Source of the DNA: an uncultured Clostridia bacterium
Lineage (GTDB): Bacteria; Bacillota; Clostridia; UBA1381
DNA length: 64,000 bases
Reading direction: 5' to 3'
Assembly: GCA_934501535.1 (NCBI GenBank)
Contig: CAKSUM010000007.1
Coordinates: 47,578-111,577 of the forward strand
A program made the position numbers and the translations under genes. The notes under the pieces were generated by a model that had not been told where the DNA came from, ran no database searches, and saw only the letters and a program-made list of their open reading frames with translations. Below are positions 27,725 to 50,691 of the stretch, one piece after another; the stretch's first letter is position 1; every line of letters begins with the position of its first letter.

Positions 27725-30700
27725 TCAGAACACTATCATAATATTATAATCGCGCCATACCGATACCGTCACAAAATTCATCGTACCGTTGCCGGTAATA
27801 TCGTTAAGTGTGATTTCCTCGATTTTTTTCGTTGACGTGTCGAACTTGTACATTTTTCCGAAAGCATTGGTTTTGAACAGTTCAACCAGACTGTCACCGT
27901 CGCTGCTTATGACTTTAAGTATTCCACCGTCTATTTTAGCAGCAATTGTTCCAAAAAAGGTTCGCCTTCTCGAGTCAAGATCGGACGAAATAGACGTATA
28001 AGCCTTGTTTCCGTCGCAGCGGTAAACAATTCTCATTTCGCCGGAATTGTCTGTTCCGGAGCGACCCTCATAAATTCTTCCGTCTTTTCTGGTGGTAAAG
28101 GTTACTATATCGCCCTTTTGCAGCTTGACGGAAGTGCTGCCGTTATCCGCCGCAACATGGTCAAGATCAACTTTATTGTCCGCATAGAATGTTTTCTTTC
28201 CGCGTGCATTATAGCATACCAGTTTCGTCAGAACTTCGCCGCTTTCCTCGTCAAATACTTGTTGTATAGCGCCTACGATATATGCGTCAAGTATATCCGC
28301 ATTCTGGATAGGACTGTTTTTCAGTATAAACGCACTTGCTACATAGTCATTATCCGTTGTGGAATAGGCAATCAGTTCATTTGAGCTGTAATTCTTGTTA
28401 TTCAGCATATAATACTGTGCCGGAATGTATCTGTACTGGTACAAATCCAAATCTCCGTCGGTTCCGGAAACAACAAACAACGGTGTTGAGCCGGTAAAGA
28501 AATATTTATTTCCTATTGTAAAAGTATCCGAAAGATAGGTATAGCTTCTGCCGTCCGTGGGAGAAATACGCCGAAATCCGTCATCGCCTGCCGACCATAC
28601 ATCTTTTGCAGTCAGCATTTCTCTGATTTTCCCGTCATCGTCACACTTAATCTGAATTAACTGCGACGGTATCTTTGAGTCTGTTCCGCACAGTATTCTG
28701 TATGCCTCATCGGAATTTTTACTTCTCTTTTCGTTAATTCTGAGCCTGTCAACACTGTCCGTTTTATTTATTGTGCCGTCCTCTCTGAACAGCCAGAAAC
28801 AAATGCTTTCCTCATCGGTATTCATTGCCGCTTTTACAATATATGCAAATTCCCATGCGCCGTTCTGTTTCTTGAATGCGGCTACTCTGCCGAATGCGTC
28901 CAGATAGAGTATGCCGCTTTCGCCCGGGTCAAGACTGTTTATGCCCGCATAGTTCTTTACACATTCCGTTTCGCTTAATATATCCTTGCCGTGGACTTCG
29001 TCGTAGAATACGATATATTTGTATCCGTCATCATCTGTGCGTATGTCATTTGCCCAACCGGAAAAGATGTTTGATGAGCGGTAAATTACGGTGTAATGCT
29101 TGTCCTTGCTCTGCAGTACGCTCAGAACATTATCTGCGGAAATCGAGTCGAGCTTGCCTTTAACACCATTGGAATAAACGATTATTTCCCCTGCCAAATC
29201 CAGGTTCAGCGTTTTGTTTTCGTATTTATCCGTAATTACGCCGTTAGCTTTGTCAACCGATTCAACAACAAATGTTTCATAGTTTATTACCTTTACTATT
29301 TCATACTTACCGTCACGGTTGTTGTCAATAAGTTCAACGCTTCCGTCCTTTGTCAACATGTCCGCATCGGTGTACTCAGACACCGAACGGTTATTGTAAA
29401 TAAGGTATCTGTCACTGCTGAGAACCGCTCTTTTTCGCGAGGAATTTTTACCTGTAGTGTAATTATACGCGCCGCCGGTGTATCCTGTCAGATTTCTTGC
29501 GTCAATTAAAACAATATCGTTCTTTTTATCTATATCCGTGAAGAATATAGCAGCGTCCCCGCCGTCTGTTTCCTTGGTATAAAACTTTACGTTTTTTCCG
29601 AGCAGCTCGGAAACATCATTGTACACAACATATTCACTGCCTGCGATTTTTACTCTGCCCTCGCCGATACCGTTGTAATTTGAAAGTGAAGTAACCGATG
29701 TCGCCTCGACAATTCCCTCTCTTTCGGTCAGTCCCATTTTACATTCAAGAACACGGCTGTCAAGCGCATATCCGGGCTGTCCGTTTACAATTTTGTCGGC
29801 CGTAAGACTGCGGCAGTCAAGAAAATTAACCAAAAGCTTGTTCAGCTGTTCAAATGTCAGCACATTACCCGACGGGATATTCACTCCTTTTGTTATGCCG
29901 AGATTTGCCGCTGCATTCTGCGGCAGTTTTGATTCAAGCTCTGATTTAAACCCAAGCGCCGTTACCAGCGCACGGCACGCCTCGCCGAACGTAATTCCTT
30001 TGTACGGATTGTATGCTCCATTTTCGTCTTTTTTGAGCAAATCCTTTTCAAGCATCAGCTGCGCATAGCCCTCGTAGCCCTCCAGGTCTGCCGCAAGCTC
30101 CGCGCTGCCCTCCGAAACCATTCCTCCGCATCCGAGCATGACTGCAAGATATTTCGAGAATTTCTCGCGTGACACCTGTTCTGACGCATCGGAATATTCA
30201 TTTGCATCATATATTCCGAACGCCTCCAGCATGCTCCGCCGGCTGTCCTCCGATTTGTCAATCACCGTTTTGTTTGCCGTCCCCGAGCTGCCTCCTCCCG
30301 AACCGCTGTCCGGTGCCGGAATATCAAAGCCCTGCTCATAAAACTGCCAGTCATCAATATAGATTTCTTTATTCTGCGTGCCTACAACAATACGAATATC
30401 TCTTGTTTTCGTATAGTCAATAGCCGACGGCATCTGGAAAGTTGCGGTCATATCGCACCATTCGCCCGGCTCAAAGGTATTTTTCGCAGAAAGGTGAATC
30501 CATTCATCACTTCCGGGTTCAACATAGCATATTGAAAACCACACCTCGGTTGTTTCCTTCGCCTTTATGCGTGCCCGTGCCTCATAAATTTTGTTGGGTT
30601 CAAGGTATACTTTCTGCAGTACGGGCGCCTGGTCCCACCCTGCAACGAATTTCATAACTTTGTTGCTGCCGTCCTCAACCTGTACCGGCTGATTTCCGTC

Positions 30701-31156
30701 ACCGACACCAAACATCGACATATCCTCCTGCTCCATGTCGCCGTTTACAATCTGACGGTATTGGGGGAATTCTCCCGTTGTGGTAAATTCCGTTTTTGAC
30801 GGTGACAGCGGTTTTCCCTCGGCGGACAGTATTCCTTTTGTAAAGGATATTTCATACTTCTGCGCCGGGTCAAGCTTGGACATATGGATTCTCATTTTTT
30901 TGCCGCTGAGCATCTCAATATCCTGTATAACATTCGGGCTCATCACCACCGAAGATGATGTTACGGTTTTTTCGTCCATTTCGGTATTAAAATTGACATC
31001 GACCACCGTATTAATAAGTCCGATATTTTCTGCACCGCTTTCGGGCGTGGTTTTAATAACCGCCGGAATTACGTCCGCCGCAAAAGCGGACGGAACTGCG
31101 GAAATAACCATGCACAGTATCAATAATGCGGCAAATGCTTTGTTTTTTATCATCAT
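27725..31156 (-). CDS. giant secreted protein A: signal peptide, one SbsA/Big_5-like Ig domain, CBM4/9-like module, Gly/Ser linker, SLH-like motif(s), about 650 aa of unassigned beta-rich region
   Basis: 1143 aa. Signal peptide ends SAFA-AD. Big_5-like segment VIKTTPESGAENI...NFNTEMDEKTV. Jelly-roll signature IVNGDMEQ ... IYIDDWQFYE. Linker SGSGGGSSG. SLH-like stretch LMLEKDLLKKDENGAYNPYKGITFGEACRALVTAL. I recognise no catalytic motif. Confidence 0.75.
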   Translation of the reverse strand: MMIKNKAFAALLILCMVISAVPSAFAADVIPAVIKTTPESGAENIGLINTVVDVNFNTEMDEKTVTSSSVVMSPNVIQDIEMLSGKKMRIHMSKLDPAQKYEISFTKGILSAEGKPLSPSKTEFTTTGEFPQYRQIVNGDMEQEDMSMFGVGDGNQPVQVEDGSNKVMKFVAGWDQAPVLQKVYLEPNKIYEARARIKAKETTEVWFSICYVEPGSDEWIHLSAKNTFEPGEWCDMTATFQMPSAIDYTKTRDIRIVVGTQNKEIYIDDWQFYEQGFDIPAPDSGSGGGSSGTANKTVIDKSEDSRRSMLEAFGIYDANEYSDASEQVSREKFSKYLAVMLGCGGMVSEGSAELAADLEGYEGYAQLMLEKDLLKKDENGAYNPYKGITFGEACRALVTALGFKSELESKLPQNAAANLGITKGVNIPSGNVLTFEQLNKLLVNFLDCRSLTADKIVNGQPGYALDSRVLECKMGLTEREGIVEATSVTSLSNYNGIGEGRVKIAGSEYVVYNDVSELLGKNVKFYTKETDGGDAAIFFTDIDKKNDIVLIDARNLTGYTGGAYNYTTGKNSSRKRAVLSSDRYLIYNNRSVSEYTDADMLTKDGSVELIDNNRDGKYEIVKVINYETFVVESVDKANGVITDKYENKTLNLDLAGEIIVYSNGVKGKLDSISADNVLSVLQSKDKHYTVIYRSSNIFSGWANDIRTDDDGYKYIVFYDEVHGKDILSETECVKNYAGINSLDPGESGILYLDAFGRVAAFKKQNGAWEFAYIVKAAMNTDEESICFWLFREDGTINKTDSVDRLRINEKRSKNSDEAYRILCGTDSKIPSQLIQIKCDDDGKIREMLTAKDVWSAGDDGFRRISPTDGRSYTYLSDTFTIGNKYFFTGSTPLFVVSGTDGDLDLYQYRYIPAQYYMLNNKNYSSNELIAYSTTDNDYVASAFILKNSPIQNADILDAYIVGAIQQVFDEESGEVLTKLVCYNARGKKTFYADNKVDLDHVAADNGSTSVKLQKGDIVTFTTRKDGRIYEGRSGTDNSGEMRIVYRCDGNKAYTSISSDLDSRRRTFFGTIAAKIDGGILKVISSDGDSLVELFKTNAFGKMYKFDTSTKKIEEITLNDITGNGTMNFVTVSVWRDYNIMIVF

Positions 31157-31163
31157 TTTCCTC

Positions 31164-34100
31164 CTATGCTCCGCATGCTGTCAGCATTTTGTCAATCATA
31201 ACCACCGCTTCCGCCCTTGTTGAGCTTGCAAACGGCCGGAAGTTTCCGTTTTCATCGCCGCTTACAATACCGGCTTCATGCAAAAAAGCAATTGCATCTT
31301 TAGCGTAATCGGCTGCCGTTTCTTCATCGGCAAAACCCGCCGTTTGTGTCATCGGCAAATTTTTATCTTTTAAATATCTGTAAATTATTGCCGCCATGTC
31401 CTCACGGCTGATATTTTCTCCGGCGCCGAATTTATCCTCGCTCACTCCGCTTATAAATCCGCCCGAAACCGCAGATGCAACATATGCTGCACTCCAGTGT
31501 CCGTCAAGGTCGGAAAATTCGTTTTTCGCATCAGGATTGTATTCGTTCACGGCAACAATAAACAGCTTAACAAATTCCTCTCTCGTAATGCTGTCCTTCG
31601 GTGCGAAACCTCCGTTGCCTTTTCCGGAAACAATGCCTTTTTCATACAGCTTTATAATCGCGTCCTTTGCCCATTCCGAGCCGTCAAGATCGTTAAACGG
31701 GCCGTTTGCACCCGGGTCGGGCAGTTCATTAACATCATTGGACGGGATTAAAAGATTTTTCCCCAGATTGCCCAATCCGCCGGAGCTGCCGCCCGAGCCT
31801 CCGCCGCCGGCTGCCGGATTTCCTCCTGCTTGATTTACAACCTCGTTATACGCATTTCTGAACGCCGCTGCGGCATATCCCAAAGATGCAAAAGTCTGCG
31901 ACTGCAGTTTGTTGTATATCAAATAGCCATCTGCGCGCGCATTTGCAGCGGTAATCAGCGAATCGATATTATTTGCTCCGGTAAAAAACGCTCTTCCCTT
32001 GTTAAAAATATTCTTTACGCTTTCCCAGCCGTTTAATTTTGACAAAGCATACAGTATGATTTTTTCGGCACAAACCTCCTTTATATCCTGCGATGCGGAA
32101 TATGTTCCGGAAACAATTAATTCCGCAATCGCCTGTCTGTCATTTTCCGAAAGCATCGTGCCGTAGATATAATACGCGTCGGCGGAGTTCAGCCCGAGTG
32201 TGTTGCTTTCAATCATTTTCCTCACTTCCGCTGCGGTACCGTTATTTGCAATTTCGGAAAGAACCGTATTCTTCACTGCTGCAAATAAATCCTCCGCTCC
32301 CGAAACATTTGTATAAGCCGTCAAATTCCGATATATCGCCGGCAATAAACTGCTTGATGACGCTCTCAGACTGTCATACAAATCGCACGGCATAAGCAAA
32401 TCATCAAATTCATTTTCCATAAATGACTGTTTCTCCGCCGCCGTAGCTGCCGCATTAAAGCTCTCAACAATATCATTTCTGCTTTTGGTTGTAAAGCTCG
32501 ACGTGAATGCAGCACTCATCGGCTTGCCGAGAAGTGATTTAACACCTGTTCCGACCGTTACGGTATATTGCGTACCCTGAGTTACACGTTCATCATCAAA
32601 TACAAGTCTCGCGCCTTTGTCCCCCGGGATAATTTCTTTCAACACATTCGGCGAAACAGTTATGTTTTCGGCGTTAATCGTTGTTTTATCAACGTAATTG
32701 TCAAAAACTATATTTACTGTTCTGTTTTTGGTTCCTACTTTTACGGCACCGTCCGCAGGGTCTATCGACGAAACATTCAGTTCTCCGTCTGACACCGTGA
32801 AGGTTCTAAAACTTAATTCGTACCCGTCGGCATCATCACCGTACATGGTTTTAACGCCGGAAGATACCGTGATTTTGTATTCTGTATTTATATCCAGTGT
32901 GTCAAATTCTATTTCCGCGGTTGTCAGATTTTCGTCCAAAGTAACATTTTTAATTTTACTCGGCACAGATGTAATGTTTGATATTGTCATCGGATCCATT
33001 GCCTTATCAAATTCAAGCGCAATTTTTACATTCTGAACGGGCATCTCCGATGTTCCGTCCGCAACGGACGAGCCTATAACCGCTCCGCTTCCTCGGGGCG
33101 CCGCGTCCCTGTCATAAAGCTGCCAGTTATCGGTAATAATGTTGTAACTTCCCTCCGTCATGGAAACAAGACGCATACTCTTAAGTGCCGGCGAAGCCGG
33201 GTTTCCTGCGCCCATATTTGCAGGAATTGTGAAATTTTCACGCAAGGTTACACTGCTGTTCGCCGCAACGTCCCGGCGTGTAAGATAGTTGTATACTTCA
33301 TCATTGTTTGCGTCCGGATAATGTGGGTCAAAGCACAAAACGCAGTCCTTATCCGGCGTTACATCGACCGAAACTAAGTACCTGTGTCCGGCAGTCCAAT
33401 CGATTGTCTGAAAAATCGGCTGCGATGACCATTGCCCGGTTTTCCATCTCAGAACAAAATTTCCGTTTTCTTCGACCCTCATTTTGGGGTTGGCTTCATC
33501 GCTGGGCGCATTAAATGCGGAAATGTCCTCACTGTCAAGATTTCCGTTAACAAACAGATTTTTCAGGTTTTCTTCCGTAGAAAATCCGAGTGAAGTTTTG
33601 CTGCACGCCGTTCCTGCAACGGATTTTACTCCGTCCCATGAAATCGTGTAATGCGTATCGCGCAAAAAATTTTTTTCAAACGAAATTGTAAATCCCTTTG
33701 CATTCGCCGAAACGCTGTACTGTGTTTCCGGCGAAACGGTAATGTTGTCTTTGTTTACGGTGCCTGCGTCAACGGCAAGGTCAAACTCTGCCGTAAACGT
33801 ACCGGTGCCGGCAGCAACATTTGCCGCCCCGTCCGATATGCTCGAGGATATAAGCCTCATATCCGGATAATTTTCCGATGTACGGAATTTTATACTTTTT
33901 TCCGACGAAAGAGCATATCCCGATGAGGATTTAATACCGCCTGTAAGACTGATTGTATATTCGGTATTATTAACAAGAATTTCATCAAAAACTATTCTTG
34001 CCGCCGTCTTGACAATTCCCAATCCGGAAGAATCGCCGACCTGCTCCGCATGCCACAAAACCGACGGCGTTACGCTTACCGTTTCATCGGTTATTGATGT

Positions 34101-35084
34101 GAAATCAATGTCCTTTGAGAAATTCACGGTAATTCCGCCGAGCGTAGGGCTGACGTCTGCCGTCCCGTCCGCGATGTCAGAGGAAACAAACGCCAGTGAT
34201 GAATCGTATACCGCCGTCACCGTGACGGAATTTTCCGTCATATCGGTATCGGACAAATCAGCTGTTACGCTTTGCGCATCGCGGAATGCGGAACTGTAAT
34301 CCGAATTATCGAACATATACCCCGGCTTTGCCGTCATGCTGACGGTGACGGAATACACACCGCCCGGTTCAAATACGTCCGTCTCTCCCATTGCCGCATT
34401 GTTTTTCTTCCATTCCACCGAATTAATTATGTAGTTTCCGGTAGTTGATGACGGTCTGTCGGGAACATTTCCGAGCGTAACCGCATAAATTTCATTCAGC
34501 TTCGTTATTTTCAGAGAATGGTCATAAAGTCTGTAATCAGCAAAAGTAAATTCTTCGGTTTTCGCATTTGCCGATGCATAAGTATGCACGATTTTAGTGA
34601 TGTACCCTCTGTTTGAGCCGGCGGCGGAATTTGCACACAATGCCATATGCCATGCTCCGTCGCCTTTCAGGCTGTAACTGAATGTAACGGTATCCTCCGA
34701 GCCTGTTCTTGTTATGGTTGTAACATCTATTGTTGATGTTGTGTCGGCTCCGGTGTACTTATACATAAATGCAAAATACTGCGCCATACCAAACGGTGTA
34801 CCGTTTCGTTCCGCCGTTGTGCTGCGCGGATATTCGCTGCTTATTACCGCTTCTCCGGACGAGTCTGCGGTGACGGTTACGGTTTTGCCGAATTTGCCGT
34901 CATTACCCTCCTGCATAGTAACGCCGTTGCCGGCAACTACGCTTTTATCAAGCATGTTATAATATTCGTCGGCTCTTGTACCGAAGTTTACAAATCCGGT
35001 ATTATCTGCCGCCGACACAGCTTGCGGTATCATCGAAACCGCAATTGCCAATACTGAAATCAGCGATATTAATTTATTTTTCAT
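31164..35084 (-). CDS. giant SLH-anchored surface protein B: signal peptide, four SbsA/Big_5-like Ig repeats, CBM4/9-like module, helical region, Gly-rich linker, three C-terminal SLH domains
   Basis: 1306 aa. Signal peptide ends AVSA-AD. Four repeats of the pattern S..(I/V)ADG...V......(I/V).F....D..T(I/V). Jelly-roll signature FVNGNLDSED ... ITDNWQLYD. The last 177 aa (nt 31167-31697) hold three SLH repeats (FNDLDGSEWAKDAI.., FSDLDGHWSAAYV.., FADEETAADYAKDAI..). Confidence 0.8.
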   Translation of the reverse strand: MKNKLISLISVLAIAVSMIPQAVSAADNTGFVNFGTRADEYYNMLDKSVVAGNGVTMQEGNDGKFGKTVTVTADSSGEAVISSEYPRSTTAERNGTPFGMAQYFAFMYKYTGADTTSTIDVTTITRTGSEDTVTFSYSLKGDGAWHMALCANSAAGSNRGYITKIVHTYASANAKTEEFTFADYRLYDHSLKITKLNEIYAVTLGNVPDRPSSTTGNYIINSVEWKKNNAAMGETDVFEPGGVYSVTVSMTAKPGYMFDNSDYSSAFRDAQSVTADLSDTDMTENSVTVTAVYDSSLAFVSSDIADGTADVSPTLGGITVNFSKDIDFTSITDETVSVTPSVLWHAEQVGDSSGLGIVKTAARIVFDEILVNNTEYTISLTGGIKSSSGYALSSEKSIKFRTSENYPDMRLISSSISDGAANVAAGTGTFTAEFDLAVDAGTVNKDNITVSPETQYSVSANAKGFTISFEKNFLRDTHYTISWDGVKSVAGTACSKTSLGFSTEENLKNLFVNGNLDSEDISAFNAPSDEANPKMRVEENGNFVLRWKTGQWSSQPIFQTIDWTAGHRYLVSVDVTPDKDCVLCFDPHYPDANNDEVYNYLTRRDVAANSSVTLRENFTIPANMGAGNPASPALKSMRLVSMTEGSYNIITDNWQLYDRDAAPRGSGAVIGSSVADGTSEMPVQNVKIALEFDKAMDPMTISNITSVPSKIKNVTLDENLTTAEIEFDTLDINTEYKITVSSGVKTMYGDDADGYELSFRTFTVSDGELNVSSIDPADGAVKVGTKNRTVNIVFDNYVDKTTINAENITVSPNVLKEIIPGDKGARLVFDDERVTQGTQYTVTVGTGVKSLLGKPMSAAFTSSFTTKSRNDIVESFNAAATAAEKQSFMENEFDDLLMPCDLYDSLRASSSSLLPAIYRNLTAYTNVSGAEDLFAAVKNTVLSEIANNGTAAEVRKMIESNTLGLNSADAYYIYGTMLSENDRQAIAELIVSGTYSASQDIKEVCAEKIILYALSKLNGWESVKNIFNKGRAFFTGANNIDSLITAANARADGYLIYNKLQSQTFASLGYAAAAFRNAYNEVVNQAGGNPAAGGGGSGGSSGGLGNLGKNLLIPSNDVNELPDPGANGPFNDLDGSEWAKDAIIKLYEKGIVSGKGNGGFAPKDSITREEFVKLFIVAVNEYNPDAKNEFSDLDGHWSAAYVASAVSGGFISGVSEDKFGAGENISREDMAAIIYRYLKDKNLPMTQTAGFADEETAADYAKDAIAFLHEAGIVSGDENGNFRPFASSTRAEAVVMIDKMLTACGA

Positions 35085-35098
35085 TGTGCTGCCTCCTG

Positions 35099-40900: not shown

Positions 40901-41227
40901 CGTCTGTCCGTCGCCGGCAATTTTATATGAATATGCCGCTTTTGTATTTTTGCCGACATTTATATCTGCGCCGGTCAATATGTTCGCTACCCCTGCGTCC
41001 TCACCGCTGCAGGTATAAACTCCGGCAAATCCGGATTCTACGGCTATGCGCGAAACACTTCCGCGCCGTTCCTCCGCCGTTGTAAAATCTTCCGGCATTC
41101 CGTTTTCAAAGTCGCCGTTTTTAACAAGATTAACAAGCGTGGTTCCGCCTTGCGCATAAGCTGCGCCCGGCGGTATCGCTGCTGCCGTTATTGCGGCTGC
41201 TGTAATAATTGATAAAAGTTTTTTCAT
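37988..41227 (-). CDS. secreted Asp-box (BNR) double beta-propeller protein D with N-terminal CBM-like plus InlB-B-repeat-like module (paralog of C, no SLH)
   Basis: 1079 aa. Signal peptide ends AYA-QG. N-terminal LVNLVKNGDFENGMPEDF ... FYIDDIEVYDIT. About 12 Asp boxes (SIDGGETWT, TTDGGKSWF, SQDGGKTWA, TADGGKTWK, STDGGKTFR and others). Collinear similarity to C, including the C-terminal ELWV..Q...GW.KFP.PY. Confidence 0.8.
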   Translation of the reverse strand: MKKLLSIITAAAITAAAIPPGAAYAQGGTTLVNLVKNGDFENGMPEDFTTAEERRGSVSRIAVESGFAGVYTCSGEDAGVANILTGADINVGKNTKAAYSYKIAGDGQTRIVDWRSNYETIDAGLYPNFKTVSGILERQTSNGEYAAVVSADGWSGKHFLHQIGILDGASAPPGARFYIDDIEVYDITDAYEINADSRVILDEGSYARINGKNMTNAGDKVSFTVKERKGYSIAGVYVNGDETVNENGRYIFTMPENDADITVKFRLLPREQTAQISYAVRKYCTLNPNSDFSFLMAYYDDGGNLLELQEVTSETAKNAEQLMQNIDTKLKSGTAEVKCFLWKSHDSLIPLVQAETQEIIPEDVPDTDNRRKSEWTPINMISQKQIKNGVKLGGEGGQRIFSLAVSKDDRVLFCGNDTGGLNRSIDGGETWTDIFGGFYAWGATAIAIDPANRNKIIAAGSLQIPSFDVFSEYITDKNGIYISEDCGETWTQTLSQPTSATTFDFRESVAFDPMSENGTGGCRTAYWSRIWRLQRYDVPLKENSVIATDTDKKGLWKTTDGGKSWFVVNENMSDSIIKVHPTKGYVYAANPDGFFRSEDGGQSFTQILSGEMILGLDVIDKKGYEDYVWINDGSGVLVSGDCGRNFTRISASGFPHNAESGNADRIVRFLKVSPVNPDNMAVGSYDGGNYRSEKYFSQDGGKTWALSGYDDSKDFFVSNNRHPIYAWSNTDENKVWSTGGDWITLSKDAGRTYSWHYEGGGEVFADQRTVFNVYDPNLFYYGSHDFNGAMTADGGKTWKYIWKTGSKYAGYVYGSYAADENTLIAIVSTDGVRSIWVSYDCGESWTDTGHEPSSTHKSAEMCYQSPTDRNVLFAANWRSADFGKTWTQMTEVDAVCTHNPYGKKEIYGFKGLNIFVSYDSGASWSKYASARCSGLTYENVITDMSYDGINGIMYYVTGPYHTGTYFGKLYNGGKSNTNLTGNLKKDSYFQLCAADPNHSDVVYVGGYMGNMSNPYGVQRSTDGGKTFRTLTTNGSDTVVTGGTCGGINPYDIIVNPETSELWVSQSCNGWVKFPSPYLN

Positions 41228-44300: not shown

Positions 44301-44511
44301 CCGCCATAAGCTCACGCGATATATTTCCGGCAAGCGATGCAATAAAATCCTCCGGCATACCGCTTTCAAAATCGCCGTTTGAAACGAGATTGGTAAGCGC
44401 CGCATTTCCTGTTCTTACCGAAGCTTCCTCCGCATGCGCTGCCGGAACCTGCGGCAGTGCGGAAACCATGCAGACTGAAACTATAAGAGCTGATAGTTTG
44501 TTTTTTTTCAT
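41392..44511 (-). CDS. secreted multi-CBM protein E with C-terminal SGNH (CE12-like, rhamnogalacturonan acetylesterase-type) esterase domain
   Basis: 1039 aa. Signal peptide ends AHA-EE. Two tandem copies of the NGDFE(S/N)G.PED ... (V/I)DDI.VYD(I/L)T module, each followed by a B-repeat-like domain, plus a third jelly-roll (QIDNFAIYDIT). The last 180 aa (nt 41395-41934) carry SGNH blocks GDST, AIGGAT, GINDAG and DGLHIN. Confidence 0.8.
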   Translation of the reverse strand: MKKNKLSALIVSVCMVSALPQVPAAHAEEASVRTGNAALTNLVSNGDFESGMPEDFIASLAGNISRELMADGTYTGVFTCDGTNVGVAGILTGAGIEVADNTRAAYSYKLATDGSGNIVDWRNSQKALTSGTYPNFKTVSGILSRQTESGDNYIEVSAAGWNGKHILHQIGMKGNVGDYPQNNSKFYVDDIEVYDITNLLEECALIYVPEGIIFDKTSATLINENGEQNWYAKKGGQVCFTVKAPENTEITNVYADGVLLAPDADGIYSFTVPEDAYETEITYDTVSGSSLVNLVKNGDFENGFPEDLTVVYGGTLSTATLDDGNKVGLLTCDGTQMGILQILTGENITVTDATKAWISYRVAQDETGWVSDWRNGGGSIGAGIFPNFTTYTNDIIRQTEEGSNYIVVSKEGWNGKHFLHQLAKRGGVGNPVVGAKIWIDDIKVYDLTNAHKIAADDFVKLTDASYAEAKGEKMTNTGDTVRFTVDDSDSIYTATKLYMNGTELTPDENGIYSFVMPDGDANITADKTATKIKPVVVDPIESAETLKLVNPFAEREDVKNNNILTVETKDGRTYADLDCLGWLDADANNQWTNSIMLANYPVIKDHKYFIKMDAKMTVSEGVNGGSLYLNVPINIKDDGEITGKTISYIQGGWLSPHHAFTAVADQANWQMMMLGENKAYSGAAAKYQIDNFAIYDITAAKTVNYSTLYCTVVPSADNDAIIDGDTIYAVPGTEITFTLNAVKTGDSVYMNLPQGVTDNGDGTYTYIVGDSDADLAFNIEENVSFDYDVDGLFAKFRNAGKRTVYAAGYEGNKLASLNITAADTAEAEKIVPINADSNSKIFVWNGMTPEADVYKNVDGAKVFLAGDSTCCNYTEGSDVKHGWGEYFGNYLNGRAEVINCAIGGATVENFIANGYSDRIYENAKPGDFVIISLGINDAGRLNGDSETYKEQLKELCRAYADKGLTVLICKEQSTAFADAAEETANELGLTCIPLNSTVIPENAFTFDGLHINNYGANLLAQNCAYMIKNSDSTLKYYIK

Positions 44512-44623
44512 TTTATTAACTCCTCCTCTGAATATTGTACTTACGCCGTTTTACACGGCTATTTCAAAAAAATTCAGAAAGTCTTGTGTATTCCGACTTA
44601 TCTTCATTTTCAGTACCGAAATG

Positions 44624-45991
44624 TCAACGTTTACAGCTTCGTCCCGGAACTATTGCCGCGAGCGGATTATATTCCGGGTGCTGCTTTTCGTATTCAGCCA
44701 TGCCGATGTTATTTTCCCAATCCTGCATTTTCATTATTTCCTTTTCCAAAACCGACATTTTTATCTTCCCTGTCAGAATATCGGAAGCCCACAGTGTTCT
44801 GAGAGGCAGCACTTCTGTTGTTTCCACCTTATGTGCCATCGGACAGGGCTTGCTTATTTCGGATATGTCCACAAAACTCTGCCATTGTTCCATGCCGTCA
44901 TCAAGCGTGACTCCCTTTATCAGGTCGCGTTCCATAGGTATCGAAAGCCCGGCTTTGTACTCCTTAATCGCCAATTTCTCGCCGATTATCCAGTTGTATA
45001 CGGTCATTAACTTATCCGTTCCAAGCCTTTTTACGCCCTTGTTGCTTATCAGCACCGTGCCCTCATTGCCCATATACTGCCAGCCCGGTTCCCAACCGTC
45101 CAAAACAGGAAACGGCGCAACTCCCCAGTCCGCTTTAGCCGGAAACTGGTATTTCAAAACTCCGTAATCATATGCACCGGCTGTTTTCATGCCGATTTTT
45201 CCCTCGCCAAATCGCGCACGCGCCTCGTCATTGTCGAGTTTTTCAGAGCCGGGATAACATGAGCCGTTTTGCTTAATCGTTAGGAGACCTTTCATAACTT
45301 CAATTACAGCCGAATAATCATATTTACCGTCAGCCGGGTTATATCCGTCCATAAATCCGCATGACGCAGACGCAAATTTTAAAACATCATCATTATACAG
45401 CGATTCAAACTGTCCAGGAAAAATAAATCCGTATTCACCTTTTTTCGGGTTTGTGAGAAGCTTTGCATCCTCTATAAATTCCGAAAAAGTTTCCGGAGGT
45501 TTCGCCTCTCCGTTTTCGTCAACAATGCCTGCTGCCTTAAACATTTCCTTGTTATATATCAGACCGTATGTAGTTGTGCTGACCGGTATGGTGTAGGTTT
45601 TTCCGTTATATTTATGTCTGCTTTCATCTATATATGGCTTGAACCGTTCAAGTATCTCCGCGCCGCCGTTTATATCCTCCAAAGCAACCAGTTTATCCGA
45701 AGGCATAAAATCATAAAGCGACGCTCCGAAAATATCAGGGCCTTCGCCTCGCATTACGGCATTTACAATCTCGTCATAGGTTCGTACCGAATAGTCGATA
45801 CGGATACCCTTTTCCTTTCCGACGGTATCATTCCATTTTTCCGTTTCCTCGGTCAGAAAAACCTTGTCATGCCCGTTTGACATCCAATAGCTGACAACCG
45901 TAAGCTCAGTATCATCTGCCGTATTTTTGCCGCACGCAGATGTGCCCAGAAGAATAGATGCGCAAAGAAGAATGTTAATAATTTTATTCAT
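44624..45991 (-). CDS. lipoprotein, ABC-type sugar solute-binding protein family 1 (orphan: no permease or ATPase nearby)
   Basis: I trimmed the ORF 44624..46132 to the ATG at 45991 (MNKIINILLCASILLGTSACGKN, lipobox LGTSAC). The size and sequence pattern are typical of carbohydrate SBPs. Confidence 0.8.
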   Translation of the reverse strand: MNKIINILLCASILLGTSACGKNTADDTELTVVSYWMSNGHDKVFLTEETEKWNDTVGKEKGIRIDYSVRTYDEIVNAVMRGEGPDIFGASLYDFMPSDKLVALEDINGGAEILERFKPYIDESRHKYNGKTYTIPVSTTTYGLIYNKEMFKAAGIVDENGEAKPPETFSEFIEDAKLLTNPKKGEYGFIFPGQFESLYNDDVLKFASASCGFMDGYNPADGKYDYSAVIEVMKGLLTIKQNGSCYPGSEKLDNDEARARFGEGKIGMKTAGAYDYGVLKYQFPAKADWGVAPFPVLDGWEPGWQYMGNEGTVLISNKGVKRLGTDKLMTVYNWIIGEKLAIKEYKAGLSIPMERDLIKGVTLDDGMEQWQSFVDISEISKPCPMAHKVETTEVLPLRTLWASDILTGKIKMSVLEKEIMKMQDWENNIGMAEYEKQHPEYNPLAAIVPGRSCKR

Positions 45992-46028
45992 ATCGTTTCC
46001 CCGTTCTTCCTCAAATACCTTTTGTTTT

Positions 46029-46056
46029 ATTATAACATGAAAACGCGCCGTGTAAA
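46029..46056 (-). promoter_or_regulatory. candidate sigma-A promoter for the SBP/giant-protein operon
   Basis: On the minus strand, TTTACA - 16 nt - TATAAT with an extended -10 (TGTTATAAT), about 40 nt upstream of the SBP start. Confidence 0.45.
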
Positions 46057-46089
46057 GTTGAAAAAACATAACCCACCCCCACTTTTTTA

Positions 46090-46116
46090 TTTGCAAAAAG
46101 CCGTTTTTTTTGCAAA
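46090..46116. promoter_or_regulatory. two copies of the 8-bp palindrome TTTGCAAA, 19 nt apart, upstream of the SBP operon promoter
   Basis: TTTGCAAA at 46090-46097 and 46109-46116, read directly from the sequence. This is a candidate binding site for the adjacent LuxR-type regulator. Confidence 0.3.
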
Positions 46117-46249
46117 CAGCCGGCATCGGCAAACGCTCATGCGTATTTTAATGAAAAACATACCTCGCCGCGATGCGGGTTACAGATTTTCAACTTTACT
46201 TTTTCTTATCAAAACGTTATAATAAAATATAGAAATAATTATTTTGATA

Positions 46250-46278
46250 TTGCAAATATTATTGAATTTTGTTATACT
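46250..46278 (+). promoter_or_regulatory. candidate sigma-A promoter for the histidine kinase / response regulator pair
   Basis: TTGCAA - 17 nt - TATACT, 20 nt upstream of the kinase start codon, whose GGAGGAG RBS lies in between. Confidence 0.45.
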
Positions 46279-46297
46279 AATCACGGAGGAGATCGGT

Positions 46298-47806
46298 ATG
46301 TTTTTATCTGCACTGTTTGTATTGCCGATTATCATTGTATACATCATCGGTAACAGATATAATAAAATTTCATACGTGTTCGGACTGTATTTTATAAGCA
46401 TTGCCGGCATAATGATTGTTTCGGCAATATACATGTCCAAACTTTCCTCTTATTTCTACACTTTCAGGGCCGATTATAAAATATACCTTGCAATGTCAAA
46501 CATGAATATGTCGATTTTTACCATATCGCGGCTGCATAACTGTTTTCAGCTGATGTTTATGTTTTCTTCGGTGCTTTTTGTAAAAATTCTGCACAAAAAT
46601 AAGCTGAAACAGTGTATTTTACTTCTGTTTCCGGCAATGATGTACTTAATAATCTGTGACCCCGATATTTCGTGGGAAATATTCCGACTTTCAAATATGC
46701 CCGACTCCGGCATGGGACGTTTTTTTGCCGTCACGGCGCCGTATATTCTGAAAGCCGAGGACGCAATTGTGGTTTTTTATTCTTTAATGCCGCTTTTTGC
46801 GATTGCGGTGAGCTACAAAAAGACTCAATTCCGGTTTAAAAAAGTGTACTATGTTTTTCTCATGGCATGCATTTTCCTTGTATCGGTATTTGTGTATTTT
46901 CTGATGAACTGCGTTTTCTTCCGCGACCTCGGGAACTCCAATATCGGATTTACAAAATTTCCGCAAAGCAGCATAAACGTTTCCGGCTCGCTGATTTTGC
47001 CGTTCATACTGCTTTTGTCGGTATTTGTGGTAGTTTCGGCAACGCTGTACTTTAAACCGTTTGCCGATATTTCGTTTTACCGCAAGGGCGAGACGGTCAA
47101 CAGTATAAAATTCTCAAACAAAAATCTGAGCATGATTTTGCACGCATATAAAAACGCGTTTCTCAGCGTTGACAGAATATCGGACATAATCGACCGCGGA
47201 ATGAAAAAGAACGATATTGAAACGGTTGCGGAAAGTACTGCGATGCTGAAAAAGCTTGCAAATGAACGGCTGGACGCCATCAACAAAACTCTTACACTGT
47301 TTCGTGACGTGATTATCAGACGCGATACAATCGATGTCATAGCGAGTATTCATGAAGCTGTAACTCTTGCACACATTCCCAAAAGCGTGAAAATAACCTT
47401 TTCATGCACGGCGGAAAATACATATATTACCGGCGATAAGTCATATCTCACCGAAACATTTCTGAACATACTGAATAATGCGTCACAGGCGATTGACTTA
47501 AATCATACGCAAAATCCGGTTATCGATGTTAATGTTTATACGCTTGAAAATTATATTGTAATAAGCATACGCGATAACGGCGGCGGTGTTTCCAAAGAAG
47601 AATTAAAGCATATATTCGCGCCGTTTTATTCAAGCAAATCTCCGCTCAAAAACAGCGGCATAGGCTTAAATTGCGTACAGGATATAGTAAAAGCCCACCG
47701 CGGCTATATAGAAGTAAAAAGTAAAAAAGGCGAATATTTTGATTTTCAGATAATTCTGCCGCTGATAAGAATATCCGAAACGGAGGGGATAAAATGCAGA
47801 CAATAA
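46298..47806 (+). CDS. sensor histidine kinase with about seven N-terminal TM helices and no obvious extracytoplasmic domain
   Basis: I trimmed the ORF 46244..47806 to the ATG at 46298 with GGAGGAG upstream. HATPase N box FLNILNNASQAI, G1 IRDNGGGV and G2 SGIGLNCV are present. The candidate phospho-His is in LHAYKNAF. Confidence 0.8.
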   Translation: MFLSALFVLPIIIVYIIGNRYNKISYVFGLYFISIAGIMIVSAIYMSKLSSYFYTFRADYKIYLAMSNMNMSIFTISRLHNCFQLMFMFSSVLFVKILHKNKLKQCILLLFPAMMYLIICDPDISWEIFRLSNMPDSGMGRFFAVTAPYILKAEDAIVVFYSLMPLFAIAVSYKKTQFRFKKVYYVFLMACIFLVSVFVYFLMNCVFFRDLGNSNIGFTKFPQSSINVSGSLILPFILLLSVFVVVSATLYFKPFADISFYRKGETVNSIKFSNKNLSMILHAYKNAFLSVDRISDIIDRGMKKNDIETVAESTAMLKKLANERLDAINKTLTLFRDVIIRRDTIDVIASIHEAVTLAHIPKSVKITFSCTAENTYITGDKSYLTETFLNILNNASQAIDLNHTQNPVIDVNVYTLENYIVISIRDNGGGVSKEELKHIFAPFYSSKSPLKNSGIGLNCVQDIVKAHRGYIEVKSKKGEYFDFQIILPLIRISETEGIKCRQ

Positions 47807-48468
47807 AATGGGCTATATGTGATGATGCGGAATATATCTGTTTTTCATACAAGATGGAGCTTAAGGAGTATTCGGAATTGGAATTTATGGGCAGCTGCCG
47901 TTCAACCGACGAATGTGCAGTCCTGCTGCAAAATACAAAGGTCGATATTCTGCTTTTGGATATTCAGATGGACACACCTACAAGCGGTATCGACTTTGTA
48001 CCGAAGGTAAAAGAAATCGCGCCCGAAACAAAGATAATTATGCTGACTAATTATAAAGATGAAAATTACATTTTTACCGCATTTGCAAACGGTGCGGACG
48101 ATTATTTTCTGAAAACTTATCCCACTTCCGAATTGACAAAAGTTATGCACGCGGTATATTCCGGGACAAACATGCTTCATTCCGAAATTGCGCAGATACT
48201 GGCAAACAAGACAAAAAATATTCAGAGCGGGCACAAATCCCTGCTCTATACGCTGCACATAATGACGCTGCTTTCGACATCGGAATTTGATGTTTTGAAA
48301 GATATATGCAACGGGTACTCGTACCGCGAAATTGCGGACAGAAGATACGTTACGCTCAATACCGTGAAATCGCAGGCATCGCGCATACTGAAAAAATTTG
48401 ACGCTCATGACATGAAAGAATTATCGGAAAAACTTGATAAACTGAAAGTATTTGAATTATTCCGTTAG
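47794..48468 (+). CDS. response regulator, REC plus LuxR/NarL-type HTH
   Basis: 224 aa. REC motifs are ICDD, ILLLDIQMD, MLT and FLK. The C-terminal LSTSEFDVLKDICNGYSYREIADRRYVTLNTVKSQASRILKKF is a LuxR-type HTH. 13-nt overlap with the kinase gene. Confidence 0.85.
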   Translation: MQTIKWAICDDAEYICFSYKMELKEYSELEFMGSCRSTDECAVLLQNTKVDILLLDIQMDTPTSGIDFVPKVKEIAPETKIIMLTNYKDENYIFTAFANGADDYFLKTYPTSELTKVMHAVYSGTNMLHSEIAQILANKTKNIQSGHKSLLYTLHIMTLLSTSEFDVLKDICNGYSYREIADRRYVTLNTVKSQASRILKKFDAHDMKELSEKLDKLKVFELFR

Positions 48469-48520
48469 AAATCCCCCTTAATAGTGAGGCTGCGGCAAAA
48501 CTTTTTTCCGAAGCCTCAAA

Positions 48521-48559
48521 GGGAGTGCGGCAAAACCTCTTCATTTTGCCGCACTCCCT
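48521..48559. terminator. bidirectional intrinsic terminator between the RR gene and the GH78 gene
   Basis: GGGAGTGCGGCAAAA / TTTTGCCGCACTCCC 15-bp perfect stem followed by a T-rich run. Confidence 0.65.
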
Positions 48560-48564
48560 TGTTT

Positions 48565-50691
48565 TTATACATTAAACATATGTTCGCCCGCATCGGTTTC
48601 ATAAATCTTACCTTTAATTATCACCTTTGCCGGTCTGTCCGTTTTCACGTAAACCTGCCGTTCGTCATACCTGACTTCTATTCCCCTGTGTTTTGCACGC
48701 GCACTGCTTATCCCCGGAATAAAACCCGGTTTTATTACAAGTCCGTCCTCCGACAGCTGAATACCTGCAACATATTTGTAAAACCACATGTCAACATCGC
48801 TGTACATATGATGATTTAATGACGAATCCTCACCGCATTCATCTACGGTTTCCCAGTTTTCACACAATGTTGTCATGCCGAGGTTTATCCAGTGTGCGTA
48901 ACTCGGCGCGGACGGATTGGTGACCATTTTATACACCGTCTCGGCATATCCGTATTTTGAAAGTACATCAAAGCTGTATTTTACGCCGATAATTCCGCAT
49001 GTTGTATGAAATCCGTTTTCTTCAATCATTTTTGCAAGATGTGCGGCTGCTGCCGGGATTTCATCGGCTTCAAAAAAACCTTCTCCTATTGCACAGGCAA
49101 TTGCGGTCTGAGTATCGCTTTCGACAATGCCGTCTTTTATGAACCGCTTTCTGAATGCCTCGCGCACCTTTTTTTCGGCAACAATATATTTATCGGCATT
49201 TTTGCCGAGTTTCTTTGCCATAACAGCCATTTTAACACAATCGTTGTGATAATATGACATATCGGTTATTTCTTTGGGGCATATTACCGCGTCTTTGGGC
49301 GGACACCAGTCCCAAAGGCTGTAGTAATTTATTAAAAGTCCGTCCTCTGACATATTATCAATATAGTCAAAGTACGCATCCATGCAGTCCCACATATCAT
49401 TTGCCGCGGACAGGTCGCCGGTTATATGATAAATGTAATACGGCAGCAGTATTATCGTGCTGTCCCACGCAGGACCGCCCGAGGTAAATCCCCACCCTGC
49501 CGGATTTGGGATTATAGCAGGCAGCTGACCGCTTGCCCTCTGTGCGTCGCGAAAATCGTTGAGCCATTTTTTATACAGCGCCGCCATATCGTAATTCATA
49601 AGGCATTGTTCCGCAGAAATCTGCGCGTCCCCTGTCCAGCCGTTCTGTTCGCGGTGCGGACAATCCGTTGGTATTCCAAAATAATTTGTCAGTGTCGAAA
49701 GCCGCGCCGCCGCATGGATTTTGTTAATCATTTCGTCACTGCACCAAAATTCGCCGACCGTTTGTATATCGGTGTGAACTCTGATAGCGATAACATCAAT
49801 GCTGTCATAAATTCCGCGTACTTCCGCGTACTGAAAACCGTGATACACAAATCTCGGTTTCCATTCTTCTTCACCGTCACCCTTTAAAATGTACGTATCG
49901 GTATGCTTTACATCATTGTTATTAAAGCGATTTACGCAGACCGTGTCGGCTTTACCGTCATCGGTAAGACGGTCTGAGTAAATAATCTCCACTTTATCGC
50001 CGCATTTGCCACGAACCTTTATTTTTACATAGCCGGATATATTTTTTTCAAAATAAAATACTCCGTTTTTTGATTTTACCGGTTTTAGTTCCTCTATCTC
50101 CATAATCGGAGGAATTTTATTTTTCTCTAAAATTCCTCCGGGAGGTGCCGCTATCACCGCCTTTTCCCAAGCGGCATCATTAAAATCAGCCTGCATATAC
50201 CCCGGCTGTTCGAGGCGTGCGTCATATATTTCGCCGCAGCGTGCGTGATTGTAAATAATCGGCGAATCGGAGGTCTTAAACGAACTGTCACTCAGAATTT
50301 TTTCCTCTGCTCCACTTTCATATGTTATATCAAGCTGCATAATAAGCTTCGGCGCATGCCGCCAGGTTGCGCCCGAAAATCCCCAGCCGCCTATATCATT
50401 ATAAAAACCGTTTCCAAGGATTGCGCAGAATACATTGCTGCCGCTTTTCAGCATGCTTGTTACGTCATAAGTATTATAAATAACTCTCTTATCATACGCA
50501 GTGAACGGCGTTGTAAAAACATCACCGTTTACTCTCATGCCGTTCATCGTATAATCTCCGTAACCAAGTCCGCATATGTTTAAAACAGCAGTTTTTACCG
50601 CATCTTTTACCTCGAATACTTTTCGGAGTATAGGAGCATTGTGCTCTCCCCAGTCACGTTCTCTTGCTATCCATTTTGCATTTTCAAACAT
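48565..50691 (-). CDS. alpha-L-rhamnosidase, GH78 (cytoplasmic, no signal peptide)
   Basis: I trimmed the ORF 48565..50754 to the ATG at 50691 (MFENAKWIA). The N-terminal rhamnosidase-N pattern LNICGLGYGDYTMNGMRV and the six-hairpin core motif PTDCPHREQNGWTGDAQ are present. Confidence 0.85.
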   Translation of the reverse strand: MFENAKWIARERDWGEHNAPILRKVFEVKDAVKTAVLNICGLGYGDYTMNGMRVNGDVFTTPFTAYDKRVIYNTYDVTSMLKSGSNVFCAILGNGFYNDIGGWGFSGATWRHAPKLIMQLDITYESGAEEKILSDSSFKTSDSPIIYNHARCGEIYDARLEQPGYMQADFNDAAWEKAVIAAPPGGILEKNKIPPIMEIEELKPVKSKNGVFYFEKNISGYVKIKVRGKCGDKVEIIYSDRLTDDGKADTVCVNRFNNNDVKHTDTYILKGDGEEEWKPRFVYHGFQYAEVRGIYDSIDVIAIRVHTDIQTVGEFWCSDEMINKIHAAARLSTLTNYFGIPTDCPHREQNGWTGDAQISAEQCLMNYDMAALYKKWLNDFRDAQRASGQLPAIIPNPAGWGFTSGGPAWDSTIILLPYYIYHITGDLSAANDMWDCMDAYFDYIDNMSEDGLLINYYSLWDWCPPKDAVICPKEITDMSYYHNDCVKMAVMAKKLGKNADKYIVAEKKVREAFRKRFIKDGIVESDTQTAIACAIGEGFFEADEIPAAAAHLAKMIEENGFHTTCGIIGVKYSFDVLSKYGYAETVYKMVTNPSAPSYAHWINLGMTTLCENWETVDECGEDSSLNHHMYSDVDMWFYKYVAGIQLSEDGLVIKPGFIPGISSARAKHRGIEVRYDERQVYVKTDRPAKVIIKGKIYETDAGEHMFNV

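Follow-up and report, generated by a model that had tools for sequence, protein, structure and literature searches.

What does a Clostridia bacterium do with a row of six genes that encode one sugar-binding lipoprotein and five secreted proteins of 958 to 1306 residues, some of them equipped for attachment to the cell wall? The genes in question lie in a stretch of 64,000 nucleotides from an uncultured Clostridia bacterium of the UBA1381 lineage (assembly GCA_934501535.1, contig CAKSUM010000007.1, positions 47,578 to 111,577), which is called the window throughout. In its map of open reading frames (ORFs) all six are on the minus strand and run in the same direction, in the order solute-binding protein (SBP), E, D, C, B and A. 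An earlier reading made from the letters alone (the sequence-only reading) had proposed an undescribed extracellular, SLH-anchored glycan-processing locus. Our comparative analysis agrees with this proposal on the grounds of the SLH domains, the carbohydrate-binding modules (CBMs), the enzyme folds and the linkage of the cassette, and the literature searched yielded no account of this cassette, nor of any GH74-like sister family. We consider it probable that the locus is a Gram-positive surface polysaccharide-utilisation cassette, in which wall-bound binders, an esterase, enzymes of the GH74 fold and the SBP would act together on a plant-type polysaccharide. The six genes are as follows.

44624..45991, minus strand: lipoprotein SBP of the CUT1 sugar type, first gene of the operon (Pfam SBP_bac_8 and SBP_bac_1)
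41392..44511, minus strand: E, 1039 aa; three CBM-like 'NGDFE...IDDxxVYD' modules with Ig-like spacers and a C-terminal SGNH esterase (translation)
37988..41227, minus strand: D, 1079 aa; CBM-like module, InlB-B-repeat-like Ig domain, linker domain and GH74-like tandem propeller
35099..37975, minus strand: C, 958 aa; N-terminal SLH triplet and GH74-like tandem seven-bladed propeller (Pfam, AlphaFold, Foldseek, family profile)
31164..35084, minus strand: B, 1306 aa; N-terminal domain of unknown fold, four Ig-like/Big_5 repeats, CBM_4_9, helical region and C-terminal SLH triplet
27725..31156, minus strand: A, 1143 aa; Big_5, CBM_4_9, Gly/Ser linker, degenerate SLH triplet and an all-beta module of ~700 residues

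The genes are separated by 112 nt (SBP-E), 164 nt (E-D), 12 nt (D-C), 14 nt (C-B) and 7 nt (B-A), and the gene sizes and the last three distances match exactly those read earlier. Inspection of the N-termini of A to E revealed a basic stretch followed by a hydrophobic one and an AxA-type signal sequence, in keeping with the signal peptides proposed for all five large proteins. The SBP likely starts at the ATG at 45991, from which the lipobox LLGTSAC/G follows.

Conservation of the cassette in related Clostridia

On at least eight independent contigs of ruminant- and human-gut Clostridia the genes follow the same order, (SBP, two permeases), E, D, C, B, A; the contigs come from ruminant-gut metagenomes, Hadza human-gut metagenomes and Clostridia metagenome-assembled genomes (MAGs). 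A genome-collection scan with the alignment of C yielded two real relatives, each a MAG of Clostridia, while the other 78 finds (L009-L086) were generic Asp-box propellers and were left out; a metagenome scan with a narrower A-family alignment added two more cassette loci. The gene orders of the relatives are listed below.

L003: D-like, SBP, permease, permease, E-like, C-like, B-like, A-like; flanked by GH31, a beta-helix protein and GH39
L004 and L096: E-like, C-like, B-like, A-like
L005/L006 and L007: (GH31, SBP, two permeases, 849-aa protein), D-like, C-like, B-like, A-like, ADH, EamA
L008: SBP, two permeases, propeller, C-like
L097: two permease-like genes, SLH-propeller, 1210-aa protein, A-like
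L089 (Hadza human gut): kinase of the HATPase_c_5 type, REC-GerE regulator, SBP, two permeases, two SLH-propellers, 1778-aa GDSL protein, D-like propeller, B-like

The synteny that the sequence-only reading had named as a check is present, since the succession of C-like, B-like and A-like genes is kept in L003, L004, L005/L006, L007, L096 and L097. Identities to the proteins of the window amount to 41-54% for C, 47-52% for D, 43-45% for the SBP, 26-32% for B and 24-33% for A, the matches of B and A extending over most or all of their length. The full-length orthologues of B always stand between a C-like and an A-like gene; in L097 the 1210-aa gene in the position of B gave no BLASTP match to it. 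An E-like gene is found at the corresponding place in L003, L004, L096 and L089, the last of these being a more distant version of the cassette. Accessory glycosidase genes in the relatives belong to glycoside hydrolase (GH) families GH31 and GH39 or are MGH1-like. The GH31 proteins at L005:326-1846 and L003:1-1288 comprise about 505 aa, with the TIM barrel and C-terminal domain only, score far below the NCBIfam alpha-glucosidase cutoff and may form an uncharacterised GH31 subfamily.

The comparison also clarifies the status of the SBP, which had been called an orphan. This holds for the window, where a Pfam scan of the ORFs detected no ATP-binding cassette (ABC) permease or ATPase, and where the SBP and two BPD_transp_1 permeases that together define a CUT1 locus are not found side by side. 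It does not hold for the relatives, since the orthologous SBPs of L003, L005 and L089, 43-45% identical to that of the window, precede two permease genes. Two ABC permease genes come after the SBP in all five related loci in which the following gene is visible: directly in three of them and after a 126-aa ORF in L089, and in L003 and L005 the pair lies between the SBP and the E-like gene. The window is thus the sole informative copy of the cassette devoid of the pair, and its 112-nt SBP-E gap (44512-44623) is too short to accommodate a gene remnant. Judged by this comparison, the permease pair is a clean loss in the window.

A two-component system is transcribed divergently from the operon, as had been noted earlier along with a cytoplasmic GH78 gene, which is convergent with the kinase/regulator pair and lacks a signal peptide; Pfam and the translations bear out both observations.

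46244..47806, plus strand: multi-transmembrane sensor histidine kinase, HATPase_c/HATPase_c_5, divergent from the operon (Pfam, translation)
47794..48468, plus strand: REC-GerE response regulator of the NarL/LuxR type (Pfam)

The kinase has about 6-7 transmembrane segments, an AgrC-like HATPase_c_5 match, no HisKA match and no obvious extracellular sensor domain. It aligns with the kinase that heads the L089 cassette at 27% identity over 479 aa (E=1e-60); the regulator is 39% identical to that of L089 (E=2e-49), and the SBP matches the SBP of L089 at E=5e-132. All three are, by these matches, orthologous to their L089 counterparts, and because of this orthology the two-component system is, as far as the sequences tell, a recurrent partner of the cassette. 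The view that the pair stands outside the system, formed from L003-L008, was dropped after L089. The kinase/regulator stretch (46244-48468) has a GC content of 0.386, compared with 0.44-0.48 around it.

The propeller proteins C and D and the esterase E

Two stretches of C are of particular relevance.

37361..37873, minus strand: SLH triplet of C, residues ~35-205, cell-wall anchor (three Pfam SLH matches; PDB matches to the Sap SLH domain)
35102..37264, minus strand: double-propeller region of C, predicted to be catalytic, residues ~238-958, with invariant D279 and D641 (profile, model)

Pfam assigns three SLH domains and BNR and Sortilin-Vps10 matches to C, and Sortilin-Vps10, BNR and Flg_new_2 to D, which carries no SLH. 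The two proteins are paralogues with 45-47% identity in the propellers, and strict Asp-boxes number 6+5 in C and 6+6 in D (11-12 per protein). The Asp-box double propellers of the sequence-only reading are thereby confirmed by Pfam and, for C, by Foldseek searches with the model. At least 1,288 homologues of C were found, fused to SLH, dockerin or cohesin modules, and the C-type propeller is, to judge from its sequence relatives, a widespread extracellular, CAZyme-like module in Clostridia. One dockerin-fused homologue (L087/L088:10001-13069, P0074; 1022 aa, 38% identical), with entries in 81 blocks of the contig collection, is encoded by a solitary gene that has genes of fatty-acid synthesis for neighbours, a setting common among genes of cellulosomal enzymes.

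The fold of the propellers points to GH74. A profile built from 22 family sequences retrieved GH74 structures first from the PDB (OXG-RCBH 5e-33, Xgh74A 4e-32, others 1e-14 to 1e-20), with sortilin, Ycf48 and sialidases well behind; its matches to GH74 chains consist of several blade-sized fragments only, and most of the GH74 C-terminal propeller was left unaligned by HMMER. The AlphaFold model of C, computed from a 61-sequence alignment, reached a predicted local distance difference test (pLDDT) score of 90.6 and a predicted template-modelling (pTM) score of 0.81, and all 25 top Foldseek matches in the PDB were GH74 (template-modelling (TM) score 0.48-0.65 by target length, identity 13-16%), the sole enzymatic structural match of the model. 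Propellers other than GH74 gave TM scores of at most 0.56 (2ymu) and mostly below 0.3. Polysaccharide lyase (PL) family 11, the rhamnogalacturonan lyases, was ruled out as the identity of the propellers, with no PL11 structure among the top 50 fold matches.

The model of C shows two tandem seven-bladed Asp-box propellers, an arrangement that among known glycosidase families is found in GH74 only (PMC2716378). The same arrangement is seen in the GH74 xyloglucanases Xgh74A of Clostridium thermocellum (2cn2), OXG-RCBH of Geotrichum (1sqj/2ebs) and PoGH74 of Paenibacillus odorifer (6mgj), and GH74 xyloglucanases, too, are dockerin-fused or wall-associated extracellular enzymes. They differ from C and D in that pairwise similarity is barely detectable and in their 4+5 Asp-boxes (PMC2716378). 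By sequence, C finds no GH74 protein in the PDB and D only one, at 4.5e-4, which places the two proteins, in sequence terms, outside the normal similarity within GH74. The only related NCBIfam match was to the model of an uncharacterised GH74-annotated protein, below its cutoff (109 versus 175 bits). The clade of C and D is a candidate for a new glycoside hydrolase family, sister to GH74 and with a specificity of its own. ORFs from the scan loci were dropped as a source of canonical GH74 sequences, being 900-1,200 aa long and not canonical GH74.

Conserved acidic residues support a catalytic role. D279 of C, in the motif tDvGG, aligns by HMMER with Asp35 in ARTD35IGG of OXG-RCBH (2ebs/1sqj), the catalytic residue as reported by Yaoi et al., and therefore holds the place of the catalytic Asp of the N-terminal propeller. 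The 61 family sequences, that of D among them, all retain D279, D597 and D641, and 55 of them retain D675; the equivalents of D279 and D641 in D are D417 and D785. The motif around D641 is an internal copy, in the C-terminal propeller, of the N-terminal catalytic motif. HMMER aligns it to ARA-D-IGG in wild-type Xgh74A and not in the sequence-divergent 2cn3 chain, presumably the D70A mutant. By its spacing to the next aligned blade, D641 falls within about 2 residues of Asp480 of Xgh74A if the numbering offset is 27, the Xgh74A residue numbers being our assumption, and no direct HMMER alignment was obtained for the region of Asp465 of OXG-RCBH with the full, C-terminal-propeller or 95-residue profiles. 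The spacing of D641 fits that of a putative second catalytic Asp. We conclude that both proteins are probably active glycosidases with the fold of GH74.

The esterase predicted for E occupies the end of the protein.

41464..41928, minus strand: SGNH/CE12-like esterase domain of E, residues 862-1016 (Pfam Lipase_GDSL_2, E=2e-12; PDB sequence matches)

The Lipase_GDSL_2 score lies above the Pfam cutoff, and sequence comparison with the PDB retrieved YxiM of B. subtilis (2o14, 1e-14 over residues 773-976) and the rhamnogalacturonan acetylesterase (RGAE) of Aspergillus aculeatus (1deo, 2.6e-10 over 862-945), both of which we take to be CE12 members in CAZy. All four SGNH blocks of these esterases are present in E as well: GDS with S868, G904, GIND with N936, and the DxxH pair D1007/H1010. 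In blocks and sequence similarity alike E resembles CE12/SGNH esterases, and the assignment made from the letters stands. YxiM shares with E a jelly-roll module before the esterase; E differs from the known enzymes in some 860 additional N-terminal residues, and its likeness to RGAE extends only over the first ~85 residues of the domain.

The first ~860 residues of E consist of three CBM-like modules separated by Ig-like domains, and the two N-terminal ones are 45-47% identical to the N-terminus of D. Two sets of direct DNA repeats with 76-89% identity (41082-41134, 43586-43638 and 44342-44394; 40742-40786, 43249-43293 and 44005-44049) mark this duplicated 'NGDFE' module, with one copy in D and two in E, and point to a fairly recent duplication or exchange of the predicted module. 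The CBM4/9-like jelly rolls proposed for A, B, D and E are upheld by Pfam CBM_4_9 in A and B and have no Pfam match in D and E, whose modules are related only weakly to the CBMs of A and B in profile-profile comparison (hhalign, 42% probability over 65 columns).

Proteins A and B and the A-type family

A and B carry no recognisable enzyme domain. Their relevant parts are as follows.

31185..31700, minus strand: SLH triplet of B, residues 1129-1300 (Pfam SLH 5.5e-33; Sap SLH match 2e-14)
29816..30259, minus strand: degenerate SLH-like triplet of A, residues ~300-447 (relatives, family profile, model)
27728..29812, minus strand: all-beta C-terminal module of A, residues 449-1143 (HMMER, model)

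The C-terminal SLH triplet of B, the N-terminal one of C and the Big_5-like repeats, all noted earlier, are recognised by Pfam, which counts one Big_5 in A and four in B. In B the Ig/Big_5 repeats flank CBM_4_9 on both sides and the N-terminal domain is conserved; hhalign showed no relation of this domain to the CBM-like modules. Three tandem SLH domains are evident in B and C, and in A only at the level of profile and model. No Pfam SLH match occurs in A itself; distant relatives have true Pfam SLH matches at the aligned position, the A-family profile matches the SLH structures of Sap and SpaA at 2.6e-22, and the model of A has three helical repeats in this region. Because of these three observations the stretch at ~300-447 is read as an SLH triplet. 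The sequence-only reading had noted neither this triplet nor the specific GH74 likeness of the propellers. The public gene call of A starts one codon later.

Searches of Pfam, NCBIfam and PDB sequences, and a relaxed Pfam scan of all blank segments that returned nothing, detected no catalytic domain in A or B, in accordance with the sequence-only reading, and the fold searches with A agree. The AlphaFold model of A reached a pLDDT of 86.5, and its Foldseek matches cover the CBM part only (CBM16/22/4), with the surface glycan-binding protein (SGBP) SGBP-B of B. thetaiotaomicron (7kwc) also listed. Locally, the model of the ~700-residue beta-module is of high confidence. Pfam has no entry for this module, and searches of PDB and viral folds gave only CBM or generic beta matches of low TM score. 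We infer that A and B are predicted non-catalytic glycan binders.

A belongs to a very large family. Exhaustive HMMER searches with a profile of the SLH-like region and beta-module retrieved 6,652 representative clusters (50% identity) at E<=1e-30, and the top 150 are nearly all proteins of 850-1,140 aa with end-to-end matches, apart from four much longer proteins that hold the unit internally; the Big_5-CBM head of A is present in a few members. An initial impression that A is an orphan, from word-index homologue searches that returned 2-4 proteins, was overturned by the locus comparison and the exhaustive searches, the former search being insensitive.

Beyond the cassette, A-type genes adjoin another large secreted protein in five other sugar loci, and a recognisable SLH triplet is present in this neighbour in four of the five.

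L090:6232-10874 and L095:6167-10790: A-type loci with GH88, fn3 and GFO genes
L091:4286-10559 (L091/L092): A-type locus with GH88 and a beta-helix protein
L093:1733-15176 (L093/L094): A-type locus with RhaM and GFO genes
L002:3357-8157: A-type locus with an adjacent SLH protein

The partners in L002, L090 and L091 share only the C-terminal SLH triplet with B, and the protein beside the A-type gene in L095 has 605 aa and no Pfam match on record. A reusable pair of the B/A type is suggested because A-type genes adjoin SLH proteins in loci with different enzymes. It is possible, though on present evidence doubtful, that B, with its variable head for glycan binding, and A together represent a substrate-independent surface platform that marks polysaccharide loci across a large clade of Clostridia, in these five loci as in the cassettes.

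Chromosomal setting, proposed working and rival explanations

Two elements delimit the presumed operon.

46029..46056, minus strand: best sigma-70-like promoter match, TTTACA-16-TG-TATAAT, upstream of the SBP gene (consensus scan)
27672..27705, no strand assigned: hairpin with a 15-bp stem between the stop codon of A and nagA (terminator scan and sequence)

The promoter-like site, a match to the consensus only, agrees with it at 11 of 12 positions, possesses an extended -10 TG and is the best such site on the minus strand. The stem of the hairpin is perfect. It is the sole strong hairpin of the terminator scan, is likely to form the 3' boundary of the operon and would terminate minus-strand transcription. 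The gene directly downstream of A is an ordinary nagA, scoring above the curated cutoff. An operon of uxaC, uxaA, uxaB and GH4 is located at 2150-7395, 20 kb from the cassette, and metA, a pyridoxal phosphate (PLP) enzyme gene, carAB, trkAH and an ABC exporter lie in between; nothing seen in the genomic arrangement connects the cassette with the hexuronate genes. With the germination protease Gpr at 62635-63582, the window is ordinary chromosome of a spore-forming Firmicute. About 4 kb downstream of the cassette and on the opposite strand, a 373-aa protein (22257-23378, plus strand) has a weak GH5 (Cellulase) Pfam match and no NCBIfam match, and adjoins a truncated AraC-like ORF (21678-22106). 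Two further plus-strand ORFs, of 664 aa (57971-59965) and 217 aa (123-776), have no Pfam match. Neither sortase nor dockerin was detected among the window proteins scanned with Pfam, so that the lack of permease, ATPase, sortase and dockerin noted in the sequence-only reading is corroborated. The term scaffold used there is not supported in the cohesin-dockerin sense, no such interaction module being found: A to E have no dockerin or cohesin match in Pfam.

On the reading proposed here, transcription would start upstream of the SBP gene and continue through E, D, C, B and A, probably under the control of the adjacent kinase/regulator pair, and all six products would be exported. B and A would be held on the wall polymer by their SLH triplets and capture soluble or fibre-bound glycan with CBM_4_9 modules borne on Ig-like stalks. 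E would strip acetyl esters, whereupon C, anchored to the wall, and D, either free or bound to the substrate via its CBM-like module, would cut the backbone as inverting glycosidases with one Asp per propeller (D279 and D641 in C). The SBP would pass the oligosaccharides to an ABC importer; because the two permease genes are missing here, import may proceed via permeases encoded elsewhere, or the SBP may serve mainly as a sensor for the kinase. As the most likely substrate we suggest an acetylated xyloglucan-like beta-1,4-glucan hemicellulose, on account of the GH74 fold likeness and the GH31 genes of relatives, a tentative assignment that is slightly more apt to prove wrong than right.

Several observations weigh against this reading. 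The structural identity to GH74 is only 13-16%, hence the specificity of C and D may differ from xyloglucan, and pairwise phmmer searches of the PDB retrieved no GH74 with C and only 7kn8 with D. The second catalytic Asp was placed indirectly, via assumed Xgh74A residue numbers, and D597 and D675 are alternatives to D641. The GH31 proteins of relatives are atypically short, and at 129 bits they lie well under the 606 bits that NCBIfam requires of an alpha-xylosidase. The window is devoid of permease and ATPase, so that uptake by the cassette is at most putative, and a multi-transmembrane kinase of the HATPase_c_5-like kind is not the usual sugar-sensing type. Esterases of the CE12 type are best known from pectin and rhamnogalacturonan (RG), and a GH78 gene lies next door. 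In the hairpin, the T-run is on the plus-strand side and an A-run on the upstream side of the minus strand, an odd arrangement for a minus-strand terminator; the element may instead be a bidirectional terminator or contribute to RNA stability.

The esterase and the GH78 lead to the substrate favoured in the sequence-only reading, a polysaccharide containing rhamnose and uronate. In such a pectin or rhamnogalacturonan locus E would deacetylate RG-I, the propellers would cut the RG backbone or side chains, GH78 would remove rhamnose, and the products of the uxa/GH4 genes would consume the uronates. The best characterised sequence relatives of E, the Aspergillus acetylesterase and YxiM, agree with this, as do a weak NCBIfam match of E to the pectin acetylesterase PaeY, the position of GH78 beside the kinase/regulator pair, the presence of uxaC, uxaA, uxaB and GH4 in the window and the RhaM gene of one distant A-type locus. 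We nevertheless judge this explanation improbable and regard the earlier target as not sustained. No PL, GH28 or GH105 gene exists in or near the cassette, in the window or in any relative, and the propellers match GH74 rather than the eight-bladed PL11. A stretch of 20 kb that includes metA, carAB and trkAH separates the uxa operon from the cassette, and the neighbour downstream is nagA. None of the related cassettes is flanked by GH78; the relatives have GH31, GH39 and MGH1-like genes instead. A similarly slight probability is given to a structural cluster, in which A, B and perhaps C would be constitutive S-layer or adhesin proteins of the envelope and the propellers lectin-like binders. 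In size and layout, the SLH region and large beta-module of A correspond to SLH-type S-layer proteins, and the family is enormous; A and B revealed no catalytic fold; and Asp-box propellers such as sortilin can be non-enzymatic (PMC2716378). Against such a role speak the sugar SBP, permease, esterase and glycosidase genes with which the cassette is consistently linked, the presence of CBMs in A and B, the Asp residues of the GH74-type catalytic motif, invariant in 61/61 sequences, the fusion of the same propeller to dockerins, typical of cellulosomal enzymes, and the occurrence of A-type proteins elsewhere in loci with GH88, RhaM and GFO-type genes.

A third possibility concerns this copy of the cassette rather than its kind, namely that it is degenerating or rewired, with the SBP kept as the ligand sensor of the kinase/regulator pair in a three-component sensing system. 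Permeases absent here are present after the orthologous SBP in L003, L005, L008 and L089, the SBP is full length with an intact lipobox while the gap behind it has no gene remnant, and the kinase has no obvious extracellular sensor domain of its own. Yet all six genes are intact and full length and show no trace of decay, components of CUT1 systems are often shared and encoded at other sites of the genome, of which 64 kb is in view here, and in L089 the same type of two-component system stands alongside permeases and does not require a permease-less SBP. We hold such rewiring to be unlikely, if less so than the two explanations above, and return to the surface polysaccharide-utilisation cassette.

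Comparison of that cassette with characterised systems indicates which of its parts are novel. The tethering of a CAZyme with CBMs and Ig spacers to the wall polymer by an SLH triplet is familiar from the multidomain glycoside hydrolases of Caldicellulosiruptor, Thermoanaerobacterium and Paenibacillus, which are usually single enzymes and release their products beside the transporter. Here, in contrast, the functions are split over five proteins in a fixed order, two of them without an enzyme domain. The closest working precedent, by analogy, may be seen in the xyloglucan use of Ruminiclostridium cellulolyticum, where an extracellular GH74 and other enzymes release xyloglucan oligosaccharides, a dedicated ABC system imports them and cytoplasmic GH31, GH2 and GH3 enzymes finish the degradation (PMC4780118). 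Common to both are depolymerisation of the GH74 type, the logic of an SBP and two-permease importer and the clustering of sensor-regulated genes (PMC4780118). The enzymes of R. cellulolyticum, however, bear dockerins, belong to the cellulosome and are encoded by genes outside the transporter cluster (PMC4780118), whereas the present cassette combines SLH-anchored or free enzymes, two large non-catalytic SLH proteins and an esterase in one operon, and the window contains neither permeases nor cytoplasmic glycosidases of the system. A and B resemble, as a functional analogy only, the SGBPs of polysaccharide-utilisation loci (PULs) in Bacteroidota, which are likewise non-catalytic, surface-tethered binders on Ig stalks encoded by the enzymes and the transporter; the anchors are unrelated (lipid versus SLH), SusC and SusD are lacking and the envelope is different. 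In role, the B/A pair may be a Gram-positive counterpart to the SusC/D-SGBP hallmark of that phylum. Extracellular wall-anchored depolymerisation combined with ABC import is a known strategy of Gram-positive bacteria; the fixed five-protein cassette, the GH74-like clade and the A-type module family are undescribed in the literature searched, and to that extent the novelty claimed earlier is upheld.

The breakdown of fibre by gut Firmicutes is far less mapped than that by Bacteroidota, partly because no simple marker like SusC/D is available. The present analysis adds a fixed five-protein surface apparatus, found in gut metagenomes of ruminants as well as of humans (Hadza), a GH74-like clade of over a thousand members, SLH- or dockerin-fused and none of them characterised, as a candidate for a new enzyme family, and a very large SLH-linked beta-module family without a Pfam model that is encountered repeatedly inside sugar-utilisation loci. 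If the B/A pair is indeed a general platform for glycan capture, it would provide a practical genomic marker for Gram-positive polysaccharide loci and an entry to the question of how, in bacteria with thick walls, oligosaccharides are handed over by the enzymes at the surface to the transporters in the membrane.

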